Source of the DNA: Saprospiraceae bacterium
GTDB taxonomy: Bacteria; Bacteroidota; Bacteroidia; Chitinophagales; Saprospiraceae
Length of the DNA: 64,000 nucleotides
Reading direction: 5' to 3'
NCBI GenBank assembly: GCA_045106765.1
Contig: JBGCFD010000046.1
Coordinates: 18,729 to 82,728 of the forward strand
Position 1 is the first letter of the stretch. Each line of letters opens with the position of its first letter. The notes beneath the pieces were generated by a model. That model was not told the origin of the DNA and searched no databases. It saw nothing but the letters and a program-made list of their open reading frames with translations. Below are positions 3,278 to 63,732 of this stretch, piece after piece. The translations under genes and the position numbers were made by a program.

Positions 3278-5077
3278 TTACGTGTCTAGTTTTAAAACTT
3301 GTAAAAATGCTTTTTGAGGCACTTCTACATTTCCAATAGAACGCATTTTCTTTTTACCTTTTTTCTGTTTTTCGAGCAATTTACGTTTACGTGAAATATC
3401 ACCACCATAACATTTAGCGGTTACATCTTTTCGAAGTGCAGAGATGGTTTCTCTTGCGATAACTTTTGCTCCGATAGAAGCTTGAATCGCAATTTTAAAT
3501 TGTTGTCGTGGTAACAATTCTTTTAATCGAGAACAAATTTTACGTCCAAATGCTTGAGCCTTATCTCGATGTACCAAAGCTGAAAGTGCATCTACCGCTT
3601 CGCCATTAAGTAACATATCCAACTTCACTAATTTTGATTGTCGATAATCCAAAGGTGCATAATCGAAGGAAGCATAACCTCTAGTAATTGATTTTAATTT
3701 ATCATAAAAATCAAAAACGATTTCTGCCAGCGGCATATGGAAAGTTAATTCCACTCGTGTTTCTGATAAATAAAGTTGCTTTTGCATTTCTCCTCTTTTA
3801 TCCATGCACAAATTCATTATTGAACCAATATATTCTGGTTTTGTAATAATTTGAGCAATGATATATGGCTCTTCTACAAAATCTAACAAAGAAGGATCTG
3901 GCAAATCAGCAGGTGTGTTTACCAAAAATTTCTCACTATTTTTTCTAGTCGTTTTCGCAAAATAGGTAACGTTTGGAATTGTTGTGATCACCTCTTGGTT
4001 AAACTCTCTGGACAGACGTTCTTGGATAATTTCCAAGTGCAACATTCCCAAGAACCCACATCTAAAACCAAACCCTAAGGCGATAGAAGTTTCCGGTTCA
4101 AAAACTAACGAGGCATCATTCAATTGTAACTTTTCCAAACTATCTCGAAGGTCTTCAAAGTCCTCATTTTCAATTGGAAAAATTCCTGCGAAAACCATTG
4201 GTTTTACATCCTCAAAACCTTGGATACCTTCTTCACATGGATTGTCAGTTAAAGTAATTGTATCTCCTACTTTAATTTCTTTGGAAGTTTTGATACCTGT
4301 AACGACATAGCCTACATTTCCTGCACCTAGTTGCTTTTGAGGAATTTGATTGAGTTGTAAAACTCCAATTTCATCAGCGGTATAATCATTATCGGTATTG
4401 ACAAAATGAATTTTGTCTCCTTTTTTCATGATTCCGTTTAAGATTCTAAAATAGGCAATTACCCCTCGGTAAGAGTTAAATTCTGAATCAAAAATCAATG
4501 CTTGAAGTGGTGCTTCAGGATCTCCAACAGGAGCTGGAATTCGATCTACAATAGCGTCCATAATGTCTTGTACTCCTAATCCAGTTTTCCCACTTGCCAG
4601 TACAATTTCATCTTTGTTACAACCAATCAAATCAATAATTTGGTCAGAGACTTCATCGATCATCGCACTTTCCATATCAACTTTATTCAAAATCGGAATG
4701 ATTTCTAAATCATGTTCGATAGCTAAATATAGATTAGAAATAGTTTGAGCTTGAATTCCTTGAGAAGCATCAACTAATAAAAGTGCTCCCTCGCAGGCTG
4801 CAATTGATCGAGATACTTCGTAAGAAAAATCTACGTGTCCGGGAGTGTCGATTAGATTGAAAGTATATTTCTCGCCATCAGTATGGTTGTAATATAATTG
4901 GATAGCATGGCTTTTTATAGTAATACCGCGTTCTCTTTCGATATCCATATCATCCAAAGCTTGATCTTTCATATTCCGTTCGGATATGGTTTGCGTAAAC
5001 TCTAAGAGTCTATCTGAAAGGGTACTTTTCCCATGATCGATATGGGCTATCACACAAAAATTTCTAAAGTTCTTCAT
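3278..5077 (-). CDS. lepA: Elongation factor 4 (LepA)
   Basis: 599 aa. GTPase motifs [14 protein letters not shown] and NKVD, plus the conserved LepA C-terminal region ([21 protein letters not shown]). Confidence 0.97.
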
Positions 5078-5211
5078 ATTGGGCGCAAAGATACGCTTTT
5101 TTGGATTTTTTACTGGAAAAAATTATTATTTGAGATTCTTTTTTGGAACGTTGAAAATGGAGGGATTGTTGAGGTTTTTAATGGTTAATTTTTAAACTTA
5201 CCCCTAAAACC

Positions 5212-38162: not shown

Positions 38163-38230
38163 TTTCACCACATAGGCACATAGAAAACATAGGCAAAATT
38201 CTATGCTTTCTATGTGCCTATGTGGTGAAA
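38163..38230. repeat. Palindromic intergenic element, family B, copy 1
   Basis: tttcaccacataggcacatagaaaacatag / ctatgctttctatgtgcctatgtggtgaaa: 30-nt arms with one mismatch and an 8-nt loop. Confidence 0.9.
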
Positions 38231-38414
38231 AAAATCGGTGGTGGTGGGATTTTTTCACTTATAAGATATCATTGCTGCTGTTGCACTCGTTGCAAGATGC
38301 AAGCATATGAGAATTCTTTAGATTAAATTCATTTACCAAAAAAAAATGCAATTGCATAACGCTAAAGTTAATACAATTACATTTTTTTAAAATGAAGTTG
38401 TTTTATCAAAAAAA

Positions 38415-53897: not shown

Positions 53898-55115
53898 TCA
53901 TTTTACCTCATTCAAAAATTTGACAATCGCATATCCCACTTCCTTTCCTAAATTCACCGGCACCGCATTTCCAATTTGTTTATACTGTTGCGTCACCGAA
54001 CCTGCAAATTTCCAATCATCAGGAAAAGTTTGAATTCGAGCATATTCTCGCACCGTAAACGGGCGAGTTTCATCAGGATGGCATCGTTCCGTTTGTTTTT
54101 GAGCGGGACTACAAGTCAAAGTCAAGCTAGGTTCATCCCAACTAATTCTTCGAGCCATTCCAGTTTTTCCTCCACCGAGGTAAAAACTTTTTTGCATATA
54201 TTCTTTTTGAATGTCAATAGGCAAGTCTCGCCAATATCCACCTGGAGGAACTAAATCTAACACTACTTTTTTGTGTTCAGGATATTTTGCACCAGGAGAT
54301 TTAGGAACTTTTTTGGGGAAAAGTTCGCCTTTTTTTAATGCATCTTTTAGATTATAAATTTTAGGATAAGGCTTCGGATATTCGAAATCAATATCAATAT
54401 CTTTTCGAATACCGACAAGAATTAATCGCTCTCTTTTTTGCGGTACATTATAATGTATGGCTTTGAGAACATGATGTTCCATCACTCGATAACCCAACTC
54501 ATCCAAAACAGATTTCATTCCTTTCAGCGTTCGTCCGCTGTCGTGATTAACCAGTCCCTTTACATTTTCGCCAATACAAATCTTAGGTTGAACTTCTGAA
54601 ACTGCTCTGGCAAATTCATAAAACAACGTTCCTCTTGCATCTTTAAAACCCAAAGATTTACCAGCATAACTAAACGCTTGGCAAGGAAATCCACCGGTGA
54701 CAACATCCACTTTTCCTTTGTACTTTTTAAAAGAAATATCTCTGACATCTCCTTCTATCACATTCCAATTTGGGCGATTATTTCGCAATGTCTCTGCAGC
54801 CCAATGATCAATTTCATTTAAGGCTTCGCACTTCAATCCTGCTTTTTCTAAGCCTAAAGCTAATCCTCCTGCGCCTGCAAAAAGTTCTAAAACTTTATAC
54901 TCTTTTCTAGGTTTTACAAAATTGCCTTTACCATCTTCATCGAATAGACTACTCAATTCTGGGAACATTTTTAATTGCTCCTTTTTATACATTCGATAGT
55001 TGCTGATCGGTTCTCGAACAGCAACTAATTTTCCACTCCTATCCCATCGCCGCAAAGTTTCTTTGCTTTTACCTAATAATTCAGCGACTTCTGAAATTGA
55101 ATAATAATCCTTCAT
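53898..55115 (-). CDS. DNA (cytosine-5) methyltransferase with an N-terminal MerR/excisionase-type HTH
   Basis: Motif I FAGAGG, IV GFPCQAFS, VI ENV, VIII QKRERL and X GNAVPV. The N-terminus YSISEVAELLGKSKETLRRWDRSGKL is HTH-like. Confidence 0.95.
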   Translation of the reverse strand: MKDYYSISEVAELLGKSKETLRRWDRSGKLVAVREPISNYRMYKKEQLKMFPELSSLFDEDGKGNFVKPRKEYKVLELFAGAGGLALGLEKAGLKCEALNEIDHWAAETLRNNRPNWNVIEGDVRDISFKKYKGKVDVVTGGFPCQAFSYAGKSLGFKDARGTLFYEFARAVSEVQPKICIGENVKGLVNHDSGRTLKGMKSVLDELGYRVMEHHVLKAIHYNVPQKRERLILVGIRKDIDIDFEYPKPYPKIYNLKDALKKGELFPKKVPKSPGAKYPEHKKVVLDLVPPGGYWRDLPIDIQKEYMQKSFYLGGGKTGMARRISWDEPSLTLTCSPAQKQTERCHPDETRPFTVREYARIQTFPDDWKFAGSVTQQYKQIGNAVPVNLGKEVGYAIVKFLNEVK

Positions 55116-55288: not shown

Positions 55289-55575
55289 GCTATTTACCGC
55301 AACTCATTGATACTCAGCGCTTAATAAAAATGTTGTTTTTTCAAAAAATACCCCTCTTACTCAACCTTACACATGGTTACAAATGTACCACAGTTTTTAT
55401 TAACACCAAACATCCGAAAAGGTTCTTTTAAAAAATGTGGAAAACTTATTTTTTATGAAAAAGAAATAGGATTATGTATCTTGCTTTTTTTCAAAAACAG
55501 CATTGGATTTTTATTTTTCAGAAAATATTTTAAACATACTTATTTCTTCATTTGAGGAAATCCAATCACTACATT

Positions 55576-57726
55576 ATGACCTTACCTGACGCTAGAATTG
55601 CCCTAAAAAAATTCTTTGGTTACGATAACTTTCGACCGGGCCAAGCTGAAATTGTACAGAACACTTATAATGGAAAAGATACCTTAGTTCTAATGCCTAC
55701 AGGTGGTGGAAAGTCAATTTGTTTTCAGATTCCAGCGATCACTTTAGATGGTATTTGTATTGTTGTTTCGCCTTTGATTTCGTTGATGAAGGATCAAGTA
55801 GAAGCACTTCGTGGCAATGGGATTCCAGCAGCTTTCTACAATAGTTCTTTGTCTAAGGCAGCCGAGCAACAGGTTATTCAAGACATTGATAATCAACAAC
55901 TTAAACTACTTTATGTTTCGCCAGAACGATTGTTGACTCGTAGTTTTTATGATTTGATGCAACAAATGAATATTAGTTTATTTGCCATAGATGAAGCGCA
56001 TTGTATTTCTTCTTGGGGACATGATTTCCGGCCTGAATATACCAAAATGAAGTTCCTCAAAAACTCATTTCCCAAAGTTCCAATTATGGCTTTGACGGCT
56101 ACGGCTGATAAGCTGACTCGAAAGGATATTGTCAATCAGATGGGATTGCGGAATCCTGAAATATTTGTCTCTTCCTTTGACCGACCTAACCTAAGTATCG
56201 AAGTTAGACCAGGACAAAAACGATTGCAGCAGATTGTCAATTTTGTCAAACAAAGACCGAATCAATCAGGTATCGTTTATTGTTTGAGTCGAAAAAACAC
56301 AGAAAATGTTGCTGATAAGTTACGAGCCAACGGAATCAAAGCCACTCATTATCACGCAGGACTTTCGCCGAATATGCGAAGTGAAGTTCAAGAGGATTTT
56401 ATCAATGATCGAGTGCCTATTGTTTGTGCGACCGTTGCCTTCGGAATGGGAATTGACAAGTCAAATGTACGCTGGGTGATTCATTATAATTTGCCTAAAA
56501 ACATCGAAAGCTATTATCAAGAGATTGGTCGAGCAGGTCGAGATGGTGCGAAAGCAGATACGATGTTATTTTGGAGTTATGGTGATGTAAAAATCCTTCG
56601 AGATATTTTGACTGACCCTGCCAATGCAAGTGAACAGACAGAACTCAAAATGACCAAACTCGAACGCATGCGCCACTTCGCTGAAGCGATGCAATGTCGT
56701 CGAAAAATTCTACTCGGTTATTTTAGCGAAACGATGGCAACTGAAAATTGTGGTAATTGTGATATTTGCAAAAATCCACCTCAACGGGTCGATGGAACTT
56801 TGATTGCACAAAAAGCACTTTCTGCCATTGCCCGAACGCAAGAACGAGTAGGGATTAATATTTTGATTGGTATATTAAGAGGTTCTAACCAGCGAGAAAT
56901 TTTTGAAAAAGGATATAACAAAATAAAAACTTACGGCGCTGGTCGAGAGATCAATTTATTTGATTGGCAAAATTATATCATGCAATTATTGAATGCAGGA
57001 TTAATGGAAATTGCCTACGACGAAGGTAGCTCACTCAAATTGACTGCTGCTGCAAAAGCCATTTTATTTGATGGAAAAAAAATAGACCTCGTCAAGCCTG
57101 CTGTTGCTGAAACTCGCAAAGCTGCCGCCAAAAAGAAAGTGGCCGCCAAACCAAAAAGAGAAAGAGTTCGAGACGAATTATTCGAAGCATTGCGAGCGCT
57201 TCGTTTGCAATTGGCGAGAGTGCGAGGTGTCCCACCGTACATTGTTTTTAGTGATAAAACTTTGGAAGAGATGGCTGCTAAACGTCCAACGACCGATGCG
57301 ATGATGAATGAAATCAGCGGAGTTGGTGAACGAAAAATGCATCTTTATGGAGAGCAATTCAAACAAGGTGTAATTGATTTTTTATTAAAAAAAGAAGCGG
57401 CTGGCGAGAAGGTGCAAGGGAGTACGCACATCATTTCTTATTCACTTTATAAAGGTGGAAAAACCATCGAGGAAATTGCAGCGCAACGTGAATTAAAAGA
57501 TACGACAGTTACTGCTCATTTGGCGAAAGCTTATGAACAAGGGGAAGAATTAGACATTTCGACTTTTGTTTCGGAAGAAGAAGTCGATATGATTTTAGGA
57601 ATGTTACACCTGATGGATACTCCTTATAAGATGTTGGATGTGTTTAATTATTTTGAGGAAAAGATGAGTTATGAAAAAATTCGATTTGCATTGGCGCATT
57701 ATTATTTGGAAGAGACAGAGGTATAA
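55576..57726 (+). CDS. recQ: ATP-dependent DNA helicase RecQ
   Basis: Start chosen at the ATG (MTLPDARIALKK). Motifs PTGGGKS, DEAH, the zinc-binding CRRK...CGNCDIC, an HRDC region and a C-terminal HTH-like extension. Confidence 0.95.
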   Translation: MTLPDARIALKKFFGYDNFRPGQAEIVQNTYNGKDTLVLMPTGGGKSICFQIPAITLDGICIVVSPLISLMKDQVEALRGNGIPAAFYNSSLSKAAEQQVIQDIDNQQLKLLYVSPERLLTRSFYDLMQQMNISLFAIDEAHCISSWGHDFRPEYTKMKFLKNSFPKVPIMALTATADKLTRKDIVNQMGLRNPEIFVSSFDRPNLSIEVRPGQKRLQQIVNFVKQRPNQSGIVYCLSRKNTENVADKLRANGIKATHYHAGLSPNMRSEVQEDFINDRVPIVCATVAFGMGIDKSNVRWVIHYNLPKNIESYYQEIGRAGRDGAKADTMLFWSYGDVKILRDILTDPANASEQTELKMTKLERMRHFAEAMQCRRKILLGYFSETMATENCGNCDICKNPPQRVDGTLIAQKALSAIARTQERVGINILIGILRGSNQREIFEKGYNKIKTYGAGREINLFDWQNYIMQLLNAGLMEIAYDEGSSLKLTAAAKAILFDGKKIDLVKPAVAETRKAAAKKKVAAKPKRERVRDELFEALRALRLQLARVRGVPPYIVFSDKTLEEMAAKRPTTDAMMNEISGVGERKMHLYGEQFKQGVIDFLLKKEAAGEKVQGSTHIISYSLYKGGKTIEEIAAQRELKDTTVTAHLAKAYEQGEELDISTFVSEEEVDMILGMLHLMDTPYKMLDVFNYFEEKMSYEKIRFALAHYYLEETEV

Positions 57727-57761: not shown

Positions 57762-58151
57762 ATGAAAAATATTTTACTCACAATAGCTGGAATTTTATTT
57801 TTTTGTGCAGCTTACTATATAGGATTTACAAGAACATATGTCATTTATAGTAGCTACCCTAAACCCTACTATCCCATTGAGATAAAAGGAGTTGGAAACT
57901 ATTTACATTTTGCCAATAATGCATCTACAATTGGAGCTTCATATCTAAATCAAAAAACTATAAAAGGAGCAATAGTCTCTTTTAGATCAGGATCATTAGA
58001 AAAAGGAAAAATAGAATATGGTTGTTACAAATCTAGCTTAACTAATGGGTATTTTCCTTTTAAAGGAACTGCTAAAATGCATGCAATCTTTATGTTTCTT
58101 TTATTTGCCGCTGGAAGTTGGTTAATTAGACTTAGTTTTAAAAAAGAGTGA
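57762..58151 (+). CDS. Two-TM membrane protein of unknown function
   Basis: TM helices at both the N-terminus and the C-terminus. Confidence 0.55.
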   Translation: MKNILLTIAGILFFCAAYYIGFTRTYVIYSSYPKPYYPIEIKGVGNYLHFANNASTIGASYLNQKTIKGAIVSFRSGSLEKGKIEYGCYKSSLTNGYFPFKGTAKMHAIFMFLLFAAGSWLIRLSFKKE

Positions 58152-58200
58152 AAATATTATGTATAGATATTTATTACTTGACCAATTAATGCTATGAAAA

Positions 58201-58959
58201 ATGATCACCCTCACCTCTTTCCACATCCCCTTCGAACCCATCATCTTCGGTTACAAAACCAACCCCCACCTTATTCTCGAATACCTCGCCTTCTTTATCG
58301 GCTACCGCTACTACGTTTTTTTAAGAAAGAAAAGTACCGATGCCATATCCTCCAATAATAGATTATCCATCATCGCAGGAGCAATTTTCGGCGCATTAAT
58401 CGGTTCTCGTTTAGTTGGATATTTAGAGCAGCCCATTTTAGAAATGACGATGGAACGATTTATTTATTTACTCAATGTCAAAACGATTATGGGTGGTTTG
58501 TTCGGTGGATTGCTTGGCGTTGAATTTATAAAATGGATCATTGGCGAAAAAGAATCTTCTGGTGATCTTTTTACTTTGCCGATAATCTTGGGAATTTTTA
58601 TTGGACGAATTGGCTGCTTCCTTTCGGGCATCAAGGAATTCACTTATGGAAGTGAAACTACTTTTTTTATGGGAATGGATTTAGGGGACGGAATCAACCG
58701 TCATCCCACTTCACTTTACGAACTTTTCTTTTTGATCGCTCTTTTCTTTTTTCTAAAAAAATTAGGAGAAAAGAAACAGTTGAAGAAAGGTCATGTTTTT
58801 CAATTTTTTATGCTCGCCTATTTTGGTTTTCGATTCCTGATTGAATTTATAAAGCCTAATATTTTTTTTACCTTAGGACTGAGTAGCATTCAATGGCTTT
58901 GTATTATTTGCTACGTTTATTATTGGAAAACAATTTTTAAATATATCGTTCCTAGATAA
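58201..58959 (+). CDS. Divergent prolipoprotein diacylglyceryl transferase (Lgt) family paralog
   Basis: Lgt-like blocks GGLFGGLLG, GRIGCFLSG, RHPTSLYE and YFGFRFLIEFIKP. It is short (252 aa) and differs from the canonical HGGL and GNF positions. Confidence 0.75.
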   Translation: MITLTSFHIPFEPIIFGYKTNPHLILEYLAFFIGYRYYVFLRKKSTDAISSNNRLSIIAGAIFGALIGSRLVGYLEQPILEMTMERFIYLLNVKTIMGGLFGGLLGVEFIKWIIGEKESSGDLFTLPIILGIFIGRIGCFLSGIKEFTYGSETTFFMGMDLGDGINRHPTSLYELFFLIALFFFLKKLGEKKQLKKGHVFQFFMLAYFGFRFLIEFIKPNIFFTLGLSSIQWLCIICYVYYWKTIFKYIVPR

Positions 58960-58981
58960 TTTGAATGAATATCACCAGCTA

Positions 58982-59072
58982 TTTTTTGATCACATAGGCA
59001 CATAGAGAACATAGGTTTTGGAGGGAAGTTCAACCACGACTATGTGTTCTATGTGCCCATGTGATCAAAAAA
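58982..59072. repeat. Palindromic intergenic element, family B, copy 2
   Basis: ttttttgatcacataggcacatagagaacatag / ctatgtgttctatgtgcccatgtgatcaaaaaa: imperfect arms and a 25-nt loop. Confidence 0.85.
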
Positions 59073-59116
59073 TCATTTTGTATATTTCAACTCTTTTAAG
59101 AAAAAATATTAAATCT

Positions 59117-60511
59117 ATGCCCACTAGAAATTACACCTACTATGATTTCACTTTGAGTCTTTGCCCTGAATGTTTGAGGCGAATAGATGCAAAAATCATT
59201 TTTGAAAATGAAAATGTGTACATGCTCAAACGATGCCACGATCATGGAACTTCCAAAGTTTTGATTGCCGATGATATCGAATATTATAAAAATATTAGAA
59301 ACTACAACAAGCCTTCCGAGCTTCCACATAAGTTCAATACGAAGACTCATTTCGGTTGTCCATACGATTGTGGTTTGTGTCCTGATCATGAACAACATTC
59401 TTGTTTGACTGTGGTCGAAGTGACTGATCGATGCAATTTATCTTGCCCAACTTGCTACGCAGGTTCGTCACCAACTTATGGAAGACATCGGACTTTGGAA
59501 GAAATAAAAAAGATGTTGGATACCGTAGTCGCCAATGAAAAAGAACCTGATGTTGTACAGATTAGCGGTGGCGAACCAACGATTCACCCTCAGTTTTTTG
59601 AAATTTTAGATTATGCCAAAACATTGCCTATCAAACATTTGATGCTCAATACAAATGGAATTAAGATTGCGATGGATTTCGAATTTACCAAAAGGCTAGC
59701 GACTTACATGCCTAATTTTGAAGTTTATTTGCAGTTCGATTCTTTTAAAAAAGAAGTGTTAGAAAAAATGCGAGGGGCAAACTTACTCAAGATACGAGAG
59801 CAAGCTTTAGCGAATTTGAATGAATTAAATTTGTCCACTACTCTAGTCGTCACTTTGCAAAAAGGTTTGAATGATGATGAAATTGGAAAAATAATTGAGT
59901 TCGCTCTTAAGCAAAAATGTGTGCGAGGCGTAACTTTGCAACCGACTCAAATTGCAGGACGTTTAGAGAATTTTAATAGTCAAACTGATCGAATCACTTT
60001 GACCGAGGTACGTAGAAAAATTTTGGAACAAACTCCGATTCTAAACTCCGATGACATTATTCCTGTGCCTTGTAATCCTGATTCTTTGGCTATGGGCTAC
60101 ATTTTAAAACTGGGCGGCGAAGTATTTCCGTTGACTCGATATGTGAATCCAGCAGACCTTTTGGACAGCAGCAAAAATACCATCGTCTATGAACAAGATG
60201 AACATTTGCATGGCAAGATGTTGGAATTATTTAGCACAGGAAATTCGGTAGAAAAATCGAATGAACATCTTCATCAGATTTTATGCTGCTTACCACAAAT
60301 TGATGCGCCGAACTTGAGTTATGATAATTTGTTTCGAGTGATTATTATGCAATTTATTGATGCGTATAATTTTGATGTTCGATCGATCAAAAAATCATGC
60401 GTTCATATTGTAGACAAAGACAATCAAATTATCCCATTCGAAACGATGAATTTATTTTATCGAGATGATAAAAAAGAAACGTTAGAAAAACTTAGAAATG
60501 AAATTGCTTAA
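59117..60511 (+). CDS. Radical SAM enzyme of the COG1964 type (architecture like MJ0619 / tetraether lipid synthase)
   Basis: N-terminal zinc-ribbon/rubredoxin-like CPEC...CHDHG, auxiliary cluster motif GCPYDCGLCPDHEQHSC, and radical SAM motif CNLSCPTC. The start is set at MPTRNY because the longer ORF runs through palindrome B2. Confidence 0.8.
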   Translation: MPTRNYTYYDFTLSLCPECLRRIDAKIIFENENVYMLKRCHDHGTSKVLIADDIEYYKNIRNYNKPSELPHKFNTKTHFGCPYDCGLCPDHEQHSCLTVVEVTDRCNLSCPTCYAGSSPTYGRHRTLEEIKKMLDTVVANEKEPDVVQISGGEPTIHPQFFEILDYAKTLPIKHLMLNTNGIKIAMDFEFTKRLATYMPNFEVYLQFDSFKKEVLEKMRGANLLKIREQALANLNELNLSTTLVVTLQKGLNDDEIGKIIEFALKQKCVRGVTLQPTQIAGRLENFNSQTDRITLTEVRRKILEQTPILNSDDIIPVPCNPDSLAMGYILKLGGEVFPLTRYVNPADLLDSSKNTIVYEQDEHLHGKMLELFSTGNSVEKSNEHLHQILCCLPQIDAPNLSYDNLFRVIIMQFIDAYNFDVRSIKKSCVHIVDKDNQIIPFETMNLFYRDDKKETLEKLRNEIA

Positions 60512-60530
60512 TCCTTAAAAATTTAAATCG

Positions 60531-60731
60531 ATGAATTTTCTATTAATGAGTGGTGGTGATCTTGATTTTATACTTTACCTTTTAGCTATATTTTGGAGTA
60601 TTCCAATTATTATTTTAGTTGTTGGATTAACTCGATTAAAAAGTCGTCCTAAAAATGCTAAAACATTAATTATTATTGCAGGAGTTTGGCTGGTGGTAGG
60701 CGGTGGAATTTGTGGGTCAATGCTTTATTAA
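60531..60731 (+). CDS. Two-TM mini membrane protein with a CGSM C-terminal tail, paralog 1
   Basis: 66 aa: ...W.IPI..L..G...LK..PK..KTLIIIAG.WL..G.G.CGSMLY. Confidence 0.55.
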   Translation: MNFLLMSGGDLDFILYLLAIFWSIPIIILVVGLTRLKSRPKNAKTLIIIAGVWLVVGGGICGSMLY

Positions 60732-60750
60732 TTGTAAAAAAATTATCAAA

Positions 60751-60948
60751 ATGATTTTACTTGAATTTAATGGACAAGGATTAGAGATACTTATATTCAT
60801 TATTGCGATGTTATGGATAATTCCAATTGTGATGCTCATCTTTGGAATTGCTCAATTAAAAAAGCATCCTAAACGTGGTAAAACCTTAATCATTATTGCA
60901 GGAATTTGGTTGATTATTGGAATAGGATTTTGTGGTTCCATGTCGTAA
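60751..60948 (+). CDS. Two-TM mini membrane protein with a CGSM C-terminal tail, paralog 2
   Basis: 65 aa from MILLEFNG..., collinear with paralog 1 and ending ...GFCGSMS. Confidence 0.55.
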   Translation: MILLEFNGQGLEILIFIIAMLWIIPIVMLIFGIAQLKKHPKRGKTLIIIAGIWLIIGIGFCGSMS

Positions 60949-60958
60949 AAGAATACTT

Positions 60959-62866
60959 ATGAAAATAATAACTAATTTTCTTTTTCTAATTATTTTCTCA
61001 TCAAACTTATTTGCACAACAAGAATTTTTGACGCTAAATTATGATTCAGATAAAAGCAAGATTACAGCTAGACATCTTTCCCAACTCGAATCATTTTTCA
61101 AAAAACTCTCTTCTAAAAAAATTGAAAAAATAAATATTGTTGGACATACTGACACAACTGCCAACATATATTACAATCAAAATCTTTCTAGAAAACGAGC
61201 GACCAAAGTTCAATCATTTTTCCTCTCCAAAGGAATTCCACCTAACCAAATTCAAATTTCATGGCAAGGAGAATCTCAATCTATTTCGCCAAAAAATCTT
61301 CGAGAAGATCGAAGAGTAGTCATTGAAGTTTTTTTTCCCATAAAAAAAATTGAAATAGTCGAAGCAATTATTGAAGTGGACAAACCGATTTTGACTACTC
61401 CAGTTTCAGATCTTTTTAAGAAAACAAGTATTCCAATTCAAGAGTTTTGCATCAATCCAAAAAAAGATACTACCATACAATGTGCTCAAGGAACAATTAT
61501 AAATATCCAAGCCAACTCATTTGCATTAAATTCTATTCAGAGTCGAAATAAGAATTGCGTTCGATTTCAAGTCAAGGAAGTTTTTTTATTTTCTGATATG
61601 ATTTTAGAAAATTTGACTACGACTTCTGACGGTCAAATTTTAGAAACGCAAGGAATGATTTATACCAATGCCATTTTAGAAAATGACACCTTATCTCTAA
61701 AAAAAGATATTGATATTTTTGTTCCAATTGATGACCCAAAATTGGATGCAAAAATATTTGATGGAACAAGAAATCCTCATTCTGATGTGATAAATTGGAC
61801 GGTTAATAACAATAGTGTTTTACGAAACTTTGATGTCTTCGAATTAGATAACTGCTTGAAATACAATGCATTATGGCAAAAATGCAATAACAAACATGAT
61901 TACATTTCCATTCAACCTGATCTAACTGGGAGGTGTCTTCGAAGGATAATCCTCTGTGGTGGGGTAAAAAAATGTCACCGATGCAAAATTATTTTTTGTC
62001 GATTTCCAAAAAGAATTCTTAAACCTTTTCATGGAATGTTTAGCAGAGAAGTTAGATCAGGCAATAAGCATTTTAGACAATGTCAAAGAATGCTGCGAAG
62101 ACAAGAACGATATGCTAGAAAACGTGATCATAAAAACTTAAGGAAACTATGTGCCTCGCTCAGAGATATGGTCCGACAAGATGTCTTAGAAGGAGTAAGT
62201 GAGCCGAACAAAAATGAAAAAGAATTACTTGAATTGACTGACTTGATAGAACGCTCAGATAGTTTAATTCGAAATGGATTGGTCAATACAAATCTTATTT
62301 CTAGATGCAACGAGTTGGATAAATTATTTAAAGAATACGAAGTCGAAAATGTAGAAGATTTATTAATGGCGATCAATCAACCTCTTTTGGATGAGTTTAA
62401 TGTTACCACTATGGAGCAATTGTTAGATACTTTGCCGAAAGTTAATTTTGAAAACCTGGAAGTGGCGTATCGAAACGAAACTATTTCATTTGAAGATTAT
62501 AAATTTTATGTTTTTAATATTTCTAGTTTGGGTTGGAAAAATATTGATATTTTTCACGGTGTAAAAGATATAAATAAAACCAAACTAACGGTCAATCTTT
62601 TGCCTTCTCGTGAAGTTGATTGTAAACTAGTTTTTAAAAAACAATCTTATGTTCTTCCTGCAAAATTAGCCGACGACCATTTTTATTTTGATGGAATTCC
62701 AAAAAACGAAGAAGCTTGGATTGTTGCGATCAAATATGAAAACGGGCAACCAATATTGGCGATGAAGGAAATTGTTGTCAAGAAAAAATCTTTTGATTTG
62801 GAATTTGAAAAATTGACTTTGGAAGAGTTGAAAGTACGATTAAAAGTTTTAGATTTTAAAGAATAA
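60959..62866 (+). CDS. Secreted protein with an N-terminal OmpA_C-like domain and a Cys/Arg-rich central segment
   Basis: Start at MKIITNFLF (signal peptide). OmpA-like motif VGHTDTTANIYYNQNLSRKRA...DRRVVIEV. The central segment reads CLRRIILCGGVKKCHRCKIIFCRF...RQCQRMLRRQERYARKR. Confidence 0.7.
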   Translation: MKIITNFLFLIIFSSNLFAQQEFLTLNYDSDKSKITARHLSQLESFFKKLSSKKIEKINIVGHTDTTANIYYNQNLSRKRATKVQSFFLSKGIPPNQIQISWQGESQSISPKNLREDRRVVIEVFFPIKKIEIVEAIIEVDKPILTTPVSDLFKKTSIPIQEFCINPKKDTTIQCAQGTIINIQANSFALNSIQSRNKNCVRFQVKEVFLFSDMILENLTTTSDGQILETQGMIYTNAILENDTLSLKKDIDIFVPIDDPKLDAKIFDGTRNPHSDVINWTVNNNSVLRNFDVFELDNCLKYNALWQKCNNKHDYISIQPDLTGRCLRRIILCGGVKKCHRCKIIFCRFPKRILKPFHGMFSREVRSGNKHFRQCQRMLRRQERYARKRDHKNLRKLCASLRDMVRQDVLEGVSEPNKNEKELLELTDLIERSDSLIRNGLVNTNLISRCNELDKLFKEYEVENVEDLLMAINQPLLDEFNVTTMEQLLDTLPKVNFENLEVAYRNETISFEDYKFYVFNISSLGWKNIDIFHGVKDINKTKLTVNLLPSREVDCKLVFKKQSYVLPAKLADDHFYFDGIPKNEEAWIVAIKYENGQPILAMKEIVVKKKSFDLEFEKLTLEELKVRLKVLDFKE

Positions 62867-62997
62867 AATATAGATTCACTTTTTCAAAAACTTAATTTTA
62901 GTTATTAGACTTTATTCGTTTGACGTTTTACGATCGCTCATACAATTCTATTTAGAATAAACTCTATTGAAGTTGTTTTAAAAATATTTATTTCAAT

Positions 62998-63567
62998 ATG
63001 AAAGCTACCCTACTCTTTTTATTTTTTACAATAATATTTAGTTGCTCCAATTCATCAACAGCTGACTCCAAAGAAAAAAATCATCGTGTCGATGGAGTCG
63101 TTCTTCCCTTGCCTACCGAATTTAAAAGTGTAGTCGGAGAAAGAATATTGGAAGGCGTTCCTCCTTTAAGAAATACGATTACAATTAAAGAGTCTGACTC
63201 AAGAACTTATATTTTAAATGAAAAAGATGGTGAACTAATCGCGATAGTTCAATTAGAAGCATTGAAACATCGAGTGGAAATTGAAGGAGAAAACTATCAC
63301 GATCTTATCAGTAATATTGAGTACATCAATCGAAGTTATTCTGCTAAAGGCATGAATACTACCATCATCGAAAAAGATGTGGAAAGCAAAATTGATCCAA
63401 AGTATTTTAAAGTAAAAAATTTAATTACCACTCCAGATCAAGACACTTTTACGATGACTCAATATTATATCACTAATAATTTTAGGTCAGCAAGTGTAGT
63501 CGTTTGGAATATGGAACAAAATGCAAATGACTTGGAAGAGTATGTAAGAAGGATGCTTTTATTTTGA
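62998..63567 (+). CDS. Putative lipoprotein of unknown function
   Basis: Signal peptide ending IFSC. Confidence 0.55.
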   Translation: MKATLLFLFFTIIFSCSNSSTADSKEKNHRVDGVVLPLPTEFKSVVGERILEGVPPLRNTITIKESDSRTYILNEKDGELIAIVQLEALKHRVEIEGENYHDLISNIEYINRSYSAKGMNTTIIEKDVESKIDPKYFKVKNLITTPDQDTFTMTQYYITNNFRSASVVVWNMEQNANDLEEYVRRMLLF

Positions 63568-63732
63568 AAAAATCAAAATAGCTTAAACTTATTTATGGGT
63601 CAAATCTTCAGTATTTATAACAACTTAGAACATGTTTAAAATAGTAAGCTATCTACATAAACATAATCTTTTAAATAAAAAATACTCATCCTAAGTAGTG
63701 TCTGGTAGAGAAAAAAAGTGGTTCAAAATAAT

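Follow-up and report, generated by a model that had tools for sequence, protein, structure and literature searches.

An Lgt paralogue, a Tes-fold radical SAM enzyme and small Cys-tail membrane proteins form a conserved gene cassette in a Saprospiraceae bacterium and in other bacterial phyla

What do a divergent relative of the lipoprotein-modifying enzyme Lgt, an enzyme of the radical S-adenosylmethionine (SAM) type and two very small membrane proteins, encoded side by side in a Saprospiraceae bacterium, do together, and do they belong together at all? The genes lie at positions 57762-60948 of a 64,000-nucleotide (nt) stretch of contig JBGCFD010000046.1 (assembly GCA_045106765.1), referred to here as the window. 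An initial annotation of the region had proposed a candidate system for the modification of membrane lipids or lipoproteins; the five open reading frames (ORFs) and the motifs on which it drew are all present in the sequence, and the five ORFs are as follows.

57762-58151, + strand: 129-amino-acid ORF, N-terminally hydrophobic and with a transmembrane segment in its C-terminal part
58201-58959, + strand: Lgt-family paralogue, 252 amino acids, a seven-helix membrane enzyme
59117-60511, + strand: radical SAM enzyme, 464 amino acids, of the GDGT-MAS/Tes fold family (COG1964, IPR034474)
60531-60731, + strand: mini-protein A, 66 amino acids, with two transmembrane helices and the tail ...VVGGGICGSMLY
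60754-60948, + strand: mini-protein B, 64 amino acids, a tandem paralogue of mini-protein A with the tail ...IIGIGFCGSMS

ATG 59117, and not TTG 59018, is the start of the radical SAM gene, because all 120 listed homologues are 462 to 470 amino acids long (462 to 466 in 117 of the 120) and begin like MPTRNY..., and mini-protein B starts at ATG 60754 and not at GTG 60703, because its homologues share the MILLE... N terminus. Between the stop codon of the Lgt-like gene and the start of the radical SAM gene lies a gap of 157 nt containing an inverted repeat. No second lgt gene was found in the 64-kb window. The closest genome locus, L001, comes from an uncultured Saprospiraceae metagenome-assembled genome (MAG) with 97% protein identity.

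To define which of these genes belong together, neighborhoods were compared among species-representative genomes, a scan of which returned at least 390 stretches encoding relatives. The best 80 loci were examined; they derive from Flavobacteriaceae (Tenacibaculum, Flavobacterium, Winogradskyella, Psychroserpens, and others), Fulvivirga, Lewinella, Chryseolinea, and Saprospiraceae. In all 80, the Lgt-like gene lies on the same strand as the radical SAM gene and upstream of it; the two are directly adjacent in about 76, mostly at a distance of -1 to +29 nt, while in the other 4 the Lgt-like gene is displaced by 1.8 to 5.5 kb. Immediately 3' of the radical SAM gene, every one of the 80 loci carries at least one small ORF with a Cys tail, giving 114 proteins by a motif filter, 1 to 3 per locus. 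Two or three tandem copies occur in 32 loci, and a fourth Cys-tail ORF is visible at L004. In 21 loci, there is an overlap of 1 or 4 nt between the start of the mini-gene and the stop codon of the radical SAM gene, which suggests translational coupling of the two. When ORFs of at least 70 amino acids were clustered across the 80 loci, only the two enzymes were conserved; a fourth gene conserved in Bacteroidota was looked for and none was found, the recurring neighbors reflecting flavobacterial synteny.

Across Bacteroidota classes, the radical SAM proteins are 81-85% identical, the Lgt-like proteins 64-72%, and the mini-proteins approximately 30-50%. Since identities differ this sharply between components, recent horizontal transfer cannot explain the high conservation of the radical SAM enzyme. 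Its 81-85% identity implies strong functional constraint. Copies of the radical SAM and Lgt-like proteins (P0040/P0202), approximately 84% and 70% identical, respectively, to those of the window, carry the NCBI MAG label Thalassobius or Thalassovita (Alphaproteobacteria); given their flavobacterial level of identity, they probably represent a mis-binned Bacteroidota contig and not a genuine presence in Alphaproteobacteria.

The gene set extends beyond Bacteroidota. An exhaustive search of 1.84 billion cluster representatives yielded 660 clusters at E <= 1e-30. Two proteins, P0243 (733 amino acids) and P0375 (671 amino acids), are fusions in which an N-terminal LGT domain is followed by the zinc ribbon and the radical SAM domain, and with P0243 as the query, 57 fusion clusters were found in all, P0243 included. 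Named examples come from Tepidisphaerales/Tepidisphaeraceae (Planctomycetota) and Verrucomicrobiota. Relatives without the fusion were found in Aquisphaera, Opitutaceae, and Kapabacteria, as well as in a MAG labeled Acidobacteriota. For all four unfused non-Bacteroidota genes for which genomic context was retrieved (five loci, namely, L083, L084, L085, L088, and L089; a single Opitutaceae gene accounts for both L084 and L085, on two contigs), an LGT gene is adjacent or within approximately 3 kb. Cys-tail membrane proteins accompany the enzymes in L081, L083, L084, L086, L087, L088, and L089; small membrane proteins with a helix-terminal Cys stand next to the enzymes in these unfused loci and in three of the four fusion loci for which DNA is available. 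Their tails, each running to the stop codon, are as follows.

Opitutaceae: ...LAVLTICGRSFL
Aquisphaera: ...ALFIYCSLGGR and ...LIAYCSMTGPVNFH
Soil contig: ...LLAWGLCLTVFRIHV
Verrucomicrobiota fusion locus: ...LAAGLCFAMAR
Other fusion loci: ...LAFGLCITILKNLH and ...AGFILCAVSIG
Kapabacteria: three Cys-tail proteins

The longer Cys-tail proteins from the Planctomycetota-Verrucomicrobiota-Chlamydiota (PVC) group repeat the same pattern of a positive loop, a last transmembrane helix, the Cys, and a short tail.

Chance falls far short of explaining this arrangement, given its presence in 80 of 80 related loci and the existence of gene fusions. The linkage of Lgt-like, radical SAM, and mini-protein genes that the initial annotation had read from this single locus thus holds generally, and conservation in other genomes, on which it had staked its proposal, was found both for the gene set (all 80 loci, Opitutaceae, Aquisphaera, Kapabacteria, and soil contigs) and for the mini-ORFs, which retain an invariant Cys motif. 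Altogether, genome comparison shows a conserved module of three components, an Lgt paralogue, a Tes-fold radical SAM enzyme, and small membrane proteins with a Cys tail, which are inherited together across Bacteroidota, Planctomycetota, Verrucomicrobiota, and Kapabacteria; by the same comparison, its two enzymes are physically coupled.

The fusion loci of the PVC group have a neighbor of their own. A conserved polytopic membrane protein is encoded directly upstream, overlapping the start of the fusion gene (L081, 2580-4004; L087, 1703-3001; L086, 2046-3032). The L081 and L086 versions are 52% identical (E = 4e-96); the protein has no Pfam family and carries a Cys-rich segment with C..C..C motifs, and in L081 an N-terminal rhodanese-like domain scores below threshold (19 bits versus 22.2). 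It may be a fourth component in the fusion lineages. Elsewhere in the radical SAM family, P0370, which passes the TrsS cutoff with 634.9 bits, is fused to a DVU_1551-type nucleoside triphosphate (NTP) transferase/HD module and not to LGT, and P0339 is fused to DUF5714. Other clades of the family have other partners, and COG1964 is functionally far more diverse than the term "Tes homologue" suggests.

We compared the membrane enzyme with Escherichia coli Lgt (PDB 5AZB), the phosphatidylglycerol:prolipoprotein diacylglyceryl transferase that catalyzes the first step of the Lgt-LspA-Lnt lipoprotein pathway. Its assignment to the Lgt family is borne out by PF01790, which matches residues 28-239 with 86.4 bits (gathering score, 24.9), while the equivalog cutoffs for housekeeping Lgt are missed widely (37.8 bits versus 118.9 for TIGR00544 and 40.5 bits versus 334 for NF000778). 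An AlphaFold2 (AF2) model, with a predicted local distance difference test score (pLDDT) of 80, has seven long helices plus an arm helix, and its sole significant PDB match is 5AZB (TM score, 0.60/0.55; E = 6e-6). The Pfam family, the seven-helix fold, and the predicted orientation are common to both proteins; the periplasmic head region of the Lgt-like protein is approximately 20 residues shorter, and, unlike Lgt, the protein is always paired or fused with a radical SAM enzyme. Its loop charges agree with the orientation of E. coli Lgt, i.e., N terminus out and C terminus in, and a radical SAM domain fused at the C terminus would thus be placed in the cytoplasm.

The structure of E. coli Lgt assigns to R143 and R239 the activation of the phosphatidylglycerol C3-O bond that the acceptor Cys attacks, and to Y26 and E151 the binding of phosphatidylglycerol; the lipobox peptide is proposed to bind in the HGGL region, and catalysis is periplasmic (PMC4728403). 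A profile built from 121 Lgt-like sequences was aligned to the E. coli sequence, the latter checked against residues 1-151 and 194-254 of 5AZB, which cover every residue discussed here. Invariant or at least 98% conserved among the 121 homologues are Y28 (E. coli Y26), R136 (R143), C139 (N146), R167-H168, Y173-E174, Y207 (Y235), R211 (R239), and E215 (E243), with P169 and K218 (R246) invariant or nearly so; the equivalents of E. coli Y26, R143, the RHP block, Y235, R239, and E243 are thereby retained. With PVC-type proteins added, R136, C139, R167, H168, Y173, E174, Y207, R211, and E215 were still invariant and Y28 was at least 90% conserved. With the fusions included as well (PVC and fusion sequences being 25-39% identical), R136, R167, H168, Y173, E174, and Y207 remained invariant, and C139, R211, and E215 were at least 90% conserved.

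Two positions set the family apart. The sequence contains the motifs RHPTSLYE, FRFLIEF, and GRIGCFLSG; where the E. coli signature reads G142-RLGNFINGELW-G154, the Lgt-like family has GRIGCFLSG[IN]xEFTYG, so that the Asn of GNF (Asn146) is replaced by Cys139 in 100% of the 121 homologues, as had been noticed at the outset. E. coli E151 aligns with Ile, and an invariant Glu146 lies two residues further on. The second change, described initially as HGGL to MGGL, concerns E. coli His103: the loss of the His stands, since the motif contains none, and the replacing residue is not Met, because phmmer and profile alignments both pair His103 with Phe101 of MGGLFGGL, a Phe in 99% of the family. As judged from these alignments, the paralogue retains the donor-binding and catalytic machinery of Lgt, with an altered proposed acceptor site and an added active-site Cys.

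The radical SAM enzyme matches PF23545 (HMPTM zinc ribbon) and PF04055 and contains the motifs CPEC...CHDHG, GCPYDCGLCPDHEQHSC, and CNLSCPTC; its domains run from a rubredoxin-like zinc ribbon through an N-terminal auxiliary cluster and the radical SAM core to a remodeled C-terminal domain, and no transmembrane segment is predicted. The structure of the Methanocaldococcus jannaschii GDGT-MAS protein MJ0619 (7TOL), an archaeal tetraether lipid synthase (Tes), was matched at E = 4e-68. When 46 diverse family members were combined into a profile, the match had E = 6e-145 and covered the whole chain (residues 20-503). Consistent with this, Foldseek aligned the AF2 model (pLDDT, 90.3; predicted TM score [pTM], 0.90) with 7TOL/7TOM at TM scores of 0.82/0.77 over 491-496 alignment columns, and the next PDB match reached 0.39; these next neighbors, SkfB, SuiB, and CteB (approximately 0.35-0.39), resemble the model in the radical SAM core only. 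The enzyme thus shares with Tes/GDGT-MAS a four-domain architecture and fold at approximately 30% identity, together with the rubredoxin-like Cys3His site, the N-terminal CX3CX2C(+His) cluster, and the radical SAM CX3CX2C cluster. It differs from Tes in its bacterial host without archaeol and in its obligatory linkage to an Lgt paralogue and Cys-tail proteins, which Tes does not have.

Membership in the two nearest curated families was rejected. TrsS (NF045646), an uncharacterized radical SAM (seleno)protein family, gave the best NCBIfam match, with 332.4 bits against a cutoff of 490; it aligns end to end, is similar in length (441-464 amino acids), and has a CC motif in common with the enzyme. 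By contrast, the TrsS-passing P0370 lacks Cys319 and has another C-terminal Cys pattern and a different fusion partner, no Lgt partner having been seen for it. Tes (NF045702) scored 292.2 bits against a cutoff of 450, with the best stretch aligning only profile positions 2-312 of 486, and the C-terminal cluster site is altered. Hence, of the earlier assignment to a COG1964/Tes-like family, the placement in the GDGT-MAS/Tes fold family stands, while an identification with Tes itself does not.

We then examined the metal ligands. The ligand numbering of MJ0619 follows Lloyd et al. (PMC9433317), with rubredoxin C9/C12/C33/H36, [4Fe-4S]N C73/C77/C80, and radical SAM C98/C102/C105; the exact Cys ligands of [4Fe-4S]C are not listed in that text. 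Among 152 aligned sequences, the rubredoxin site (C16, C19, C40, and H43), the N-terminal cluster (C81, C85, and C88), and C110 and C113 of the radical SAM cluster were invariant, and C106 was present in 151. The C-terminal domain is where the proteins part. MJ0619 and Tes-like bacterial relatives carry KCC...IPFC, whereas the Lgt-associated clade consistently differs: Cys455 of MJ0619 is replaced by Ser/Thr (S427 here), Cys470 by Glu/Asp (E442 here), Cys338 mostly by Ser/Ala, C438 by Ile, and Tyr459, which is strictly conserved in 1,000 archaeal homologues (PMC9433317), also by Ile; the Met439 position is Met in the window protein and Val or Thr in other members of the clade. All 120 Bacteroidota proteins carry the signature K[ST]C...IPF[DE], as do 45 of the 57 fusions and 60 of the 63 unfused PVC-type proteins; these counts come from curated sets only, as a strict regular expression left 115 of 150 representative proteins unclassified. 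In turn, C319, C390, C391, and C428 form a clade signature that is invariant in 140 of 142 Lgt-associated sequences, with none of C319, C390, and C391 aligned to a Cys of MJ0619. A third cluster may therefore still be bound through a different ligand set. By these sequence features, the protein belongs to a distinct "Lgt-associated" clade within the GDGT-MAS/Tes fold family.

The third component comprises the mini-proteins, for which no Pfam or NCBIfam family was found above threshold. Both A and B end in CGSM tails, with the Cys followed by 5 residues in A and by 4 in B, and not located 3-4 residues from the C terminus as first described. The loop between the two helices contains five K/R and no D/E residues, and the termini are without positive charge; by the positive-inside rule, the loop is thus predicted to be cytoplasmic and the Cys to lie at the periplasmic end of the last helix. 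The 114 proteins of the 80 loci share one design: an acidic N terminus, a first transmembrane helix, a Lys/Arg-rich loop, and a second transmembrane helix leading into [IL][IV][SG][LF]-G-[IVYF]-C-G-[SGTA]-[ML], with 3-8 residues after the Cys. Gly occupies position -2 in all 114 and position +1 in 101, while position -1 is I/V/Y/F/L/T; the motif filter demanded the Cys, and neither the two Gly residues nor the presence of an ORF in all 80 loci was demanded. None of the 114 fits the lipobox [LVI][ASTVI][GAS]C (as defined in PMC12462473). Nevertheless, the arrangement of a lipoprotein signal peptide, with n-region, h-region, and then Cys, is kept, here at the C-terminal end of a small membrane protein. 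The "inverted lipobox" of the initial annotation is accordingly the wrong way round: a K/R-rich loop, a hydrophobic helix, and a Cys predicted to be periplasmic follow one another in the normal signal-peptide orientation.

In known Lgt acceptors and, by prediction, in the candidate acceptors, a positive segment is thus followed by a hydrophobic helix whose periplasmic end carries a Cys. In contrast to Lgt substrates, the candidates are polytopic proteins of 50-150 amino acids with the Cys 3-10 residues from the C terminus, in the motif G-[ILVYF]-C and not in an N-terminal lipobox; the bulky -1 residues argue against cleavage by LspA. The tandem copies and the conservation confined to the last helix and the Cys tail are more as expected of a substrate than of a stoichiometric subunit. 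Mini-protein A is our proposed acceptor substrate, and a peptide such as ...VIISLGICGSMM would be a candidate acceptor for the Lgt-like enzyme.

What, then, might the cassette do? We propose that the Lgt paralogue lipidates the mini-protein Cys with a diacylglyceryl group derived from phosphatidylglycerol, and that the radical SAM enzyme acts by Tes-like radical chemistry on acyl tails, either those of the donor or those of the product, a proposal that, resting on sequence and structure comparison, we consider about as probable as its negation. The active site of the Lgt-like enzyme would face the periplasm, as in the E. coli orientation. A network of Arg136, Arg211, Tyr, and Glu residues would bind phosphatidylglycerol, and diacylglyceryl would be passed to the thiol of the mini-protein Cys, which at the periplasmic end of the last helix would occupy the position of a lipobox Cys. 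Loss of the HGGL His, together with an acceptor motif G-[ILV]-C in place of [ASTVI]-[GAS]-C, would give the enzyme a dedicated specificity for non-lipobox acceptors. The radical SAM enzyme, presumably soluble, would be docked or fused at the cytoplasmic C terminus of the Lgt-like enzyme and would abstract hydrogen at the end of an acyl chain in the manner of Tes. GDGT-MAS binds two lipids and couples their terminal carbons, and in the Tes mechanism an auxiliary cluster takes part in a C-S bond (PMC9433317). Phytanyl chains end in the same structure as the tails of iso-branched fatty acids (PMC8941075), and the iso-C15 tails of Bacteroidota, with their phytanyl-like terminus, could be the target here. 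A C-C or C-S bond would follow, either on donor phosphatidylglycerol before transfer or on the protein-bound lipid, and the product would be a macrocyclic or membrane-spanning lipid anchor.

Taken to its end, this scheme describes a new lipidation pathway in which a Cys in the C-terminal region of small polytopic proteins is S-diacylglycerylated and the anchor is then cross-linked by Tes-type C-C coupling, within itself as a macrocycle or to a lipid of the opposite leaflet; we regard this full version as rather doubtful. If it is true, the protein-bound lipid would escape ordinary lipid extraction, and many bacteria with "Tes homologues" would for that reason lack known tetraether or diabolic-acid lipids. 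The kind of product might resemble that of Mss, the bacterial membrane-spanning lipid synthase of Thermotoga and Thermoanaerobacter, a radical SAM enzyme proposed or shown to join fatty-acid tails tail to tail in bacterial lipids. Mss, however, is assigned to a different radical SAM family, no Tes homologues having been found in its hosts (PMC13159169); it occurs in anaerobes, and no Lgt or Cys-tail partners have been reported for it.

Several observations weigh against the proposed lipidation of the mini-proteins. The main difficulty, along with the remodeled C-terminal cluster, is spatial coupling, as the radical SAM enzyme is predicted to be cytoplasmic and both the acceptor Cys and the Lgt-type site periplasmic. 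The invariant Cys139 and the lost His103 could signal a reaction other than thiol diacylglycerylation. The ligands of the C-terminal cluster differ from the site of the C-S intermediate in Tes, with two Cys residues changed to Ser and Glu/Asp and Tyr459 to Ile, and Tes-type C-C coupling is therefore not assured. Fusion locus L082 has no obvious Cys-tail neighbor, and in Aquisphaera and Kapabacteria several genes stand between the LGT and radical SAM genes. To our knowledge, Flavobacteriia have not been reported to contain membrane-spanning or macrocyclic lipids.

The strongest alternative is a pathway that acts on lipids only, which we regard as unlikely and nonetheless as a serious competitor. 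The Lgt-like domain would then bind or present phosphatidylglycerol, or pass diacylglyceryl to a non-protein acceptor, and the radical SAM enzyme would couple or otherwise modify the acyl tails, giving bacterial lipids that are macrocyclic or membrane-spanning, such as precursors of iso-diabolic acid or of the branched glycerol dialkyl glycerol tetraether (brGDGT) type; the mini-proteins would be accessory, with a scaffolding or regulatory part, e.g., through a disulfide to Cys139, which is invariant and predicted on the same periplasmic side as their own Cys. The Tes fold speaks for such a pathway, bacterial Tes homologues having been proposed to make membrane-spanning lipids (PMC8941075, PMC11868695), and a lipid-binding membrane domain fused to a radical SAM enzyme suits substrate presentation; L082, a fusion locus without an adjacent Cys-tail gene, is also as expected. 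Against it, an invariant Cys in a fast-evolving mini-protein (30-50% identity versus 82-85% for the enzyme) points to a reactive site, located exactly where Lgt modifies its substrates, and accessory subunits are rarely found as 2-3 tandem paralogues. In addition, surveyed producers of diabolic or iso-diabolic acid had no detected Tes homologues, with only 3 of 14 iso-diabolic-acid Acidobacteria having one (PMC13159169). The same small genes could instead be precursors, in the way of ribosomally synthesized and post-translationally modified peptides (RiPPs): the radical SAM enzyme would modify the mini-protein itself, e.g., by a thioether from its Cys to a lipid or peptide carbon, with the altered C-terminal cluster binding the Cys thiolate and the Lgt-like enzyme adding or exchanging a lipid or anchoring the complex. 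Tandem precursor-like genes with a conserved C-terminal core C-G-[STGA]-[ML] fit this idea, as do the C-S bond to an auxiliary cluster that is already part of the Tes mechanism (PMC9433317) and the two lost Cys ligands, which could open a coordination site at the C-terminal cluster. Although the next-best structural neighbors, SkfB, SuiB, and CteB, do modify peptides, the whole chain, including the lipid-pocket C-terminal domain, fits GDGT-MAS over these maturases by the TM scores given above. No Pfam SPASM/twitch or RRE domain was found, NCBIfam peptide-maturase models scored at most 57 bits against cutoffs of 265-850, and the enzyme lies in the cytoplasm, the Cys, by prediction, in the periplasm; overall, we find modification of the peptide quite improbable.

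It could also be that the genes are unrelated neighbors, namely, a housekeeping lgt, an independent radical SAM gene (an HMPTM-type methylase or TrsS), and spurious or unrelated mini-ORFs. Database labels point this way, as the fusions are annotated at JGI as "7,8-dihydro-6-hydroxymethylpterin dimethyltransferase" and the Lgt-like protein bears the NCBI name "prolipoprotein diacylglyceryl transferase," and TrsS is the best NCBIfam match. Yet chance proximity is very hard to reconcile with about 57 fusion clusters, a three-gene order maintained in 80 of 80 loci despite varying flanks, and a mini-protein motif kept across phyla; the Lgt-like protein misses the Lgt equivalog cutoffs by a wide margin and has neither His103 nor Asn146, the radical SAM protein falls below those of TrsS and Tes, and the partner of TrsS-passing P0370 is a DVU_1551 NTP transferase. 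Moreover, the HMPTM role of MJ0619 was not corroborated, and a methanopterin-type substrate was judged unlikely in its hydrophobic active site (PMC9433317). We therefore give this explanation almost no weight. A defense system was considered and rejected as well: PADLOC gave no match, there being only a generic likeness of the radical SAM core to pVip (50 bits) and nothing for the Lgt-like protein or the mini-proteins.

The elements that surround the cassette in the window are of a different nature. The 129-amino-acid ORF, initially counted as a two-helix member of the system, has no homologue in any of the 80 loci, the 97%-identical L001 included, and no Pfam or NCBIfam family above threshold, and it was rejected as a component. 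In L001, its slot (4367-5080) is occupied by an unrelated 237-amino-acid ORF that looks methyltransferase-like by eye; recQ and the cassette are separated by a slot for variable insertions. The inverted repeat between the Lgt-like and radical SAM genes (58981-59014 / 59040-59073) has 34-nt arms that are 91% complementary and belongs to a dispersed family, with a further copy at approximately 38166-38250 of the window and one at approximately 5860-5960 of L001; its arms contain CACATAGGCACATAG, flanked by T and A runs. It is present in L001 and absent from the equally close L002, which has a 63-nt spacer, and most genomes have no spacer at all. The repeat looks like a REP-like (repetitive extragenic palindromic) or MITE-like (miniature inverted-repeat transposable) intergenic element of this Saprospiraceae lineage. 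A role as an operon-splitting terminator was rejected, no terminator-like site having been found, and the earlier use of this palindrome to question cotranscription says little in general, as the repeat is confined to this lineage. A scan for sigma-70 promoters found fewer sites than in shuffled sequences, Bacteroidota using other promoters, and Rfam gave no match at E <= 1. Downstream, a 2.8-kb block (approximately 60949-63721) made up of the OmpA-domain and lipoprotein-like ORFs is absent from L001, where sequence homologous to the window from 63722 onward directly follows the mini-proteins. The flanking features are as follows.

53898-55115, - strand: 405-amino-acid ORF, by eye cytosine-5 DNA methyltransferase-like with an N-terminal helix-turn-helix-like segment, upstream of and divergent from the RecQ gene
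55552-57726, + strand: full-length RecQ helicase (TIGR01389, 747 bits) with an extra C-terminal HTH_40 domain
60959-62866: OmpA-domain protein, 635 amino acids, with the OmpA domain N-terminal and a long C-terminal part that has a Cys-, Arg-, and Lys-rich stretch
62998-63567: lipoprotein-like ORF, 189 amino acids (...IIFSCSNSS)

The OmpA-like gene, the 129-amino-acid ORF, and the palindrome are lineage specific and lie outside the system.

In the literature, no description was found of a cassette combining an Lgt paralogue, a radical SAM enzyme, and Cys-tail proteins. Bacterial Tes homologues are treated as unconfirmed candidates for the synthesis of brGDGTs or membrane-spanning lipids, and Lgt goes unmentioned there (PMC8941075, PMC13159169, PMC11868695, PMC13459092). 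The cassette is thus undescribed and built from two known enzyme families, and there is a realistic chance that it constitutes a new pathway of protein lipidation or lipid cross-linking. If the Lgt paralogue does lipidate an internal or C-terminal Cys, the Cys-tail proteins would be a new class of Lgt acceptors; we know of no Lgt-type modification outside the N-terminal lipobox paradigm, and this one would, if true, be the first.

Since 2022, bacterial Tes homologues have been counted as possible lipid synthases without experimental assignment (PMC8941075, PMC11868695, PMC13459092). The obligatory coupling of a large and well-delimited clade of these homologues to an Lgt paralogue and Cys-tail proteins now provides a concrete and testable functional hypothesis for that clade, which ranges over hundreds of Bacteroidota species, Planctomycetota, Verrucomicrobiota, Kapabacteria, and possibly Acidobacteriota, and it advises caution in the use of plain Tes homology as a marker of tetraether producers. 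As the cassette is present in tractable flavobacteria, including close relatives of the model organism Flavobacterium johnsoniae, genetics and mass spectrometry are directly feasible.

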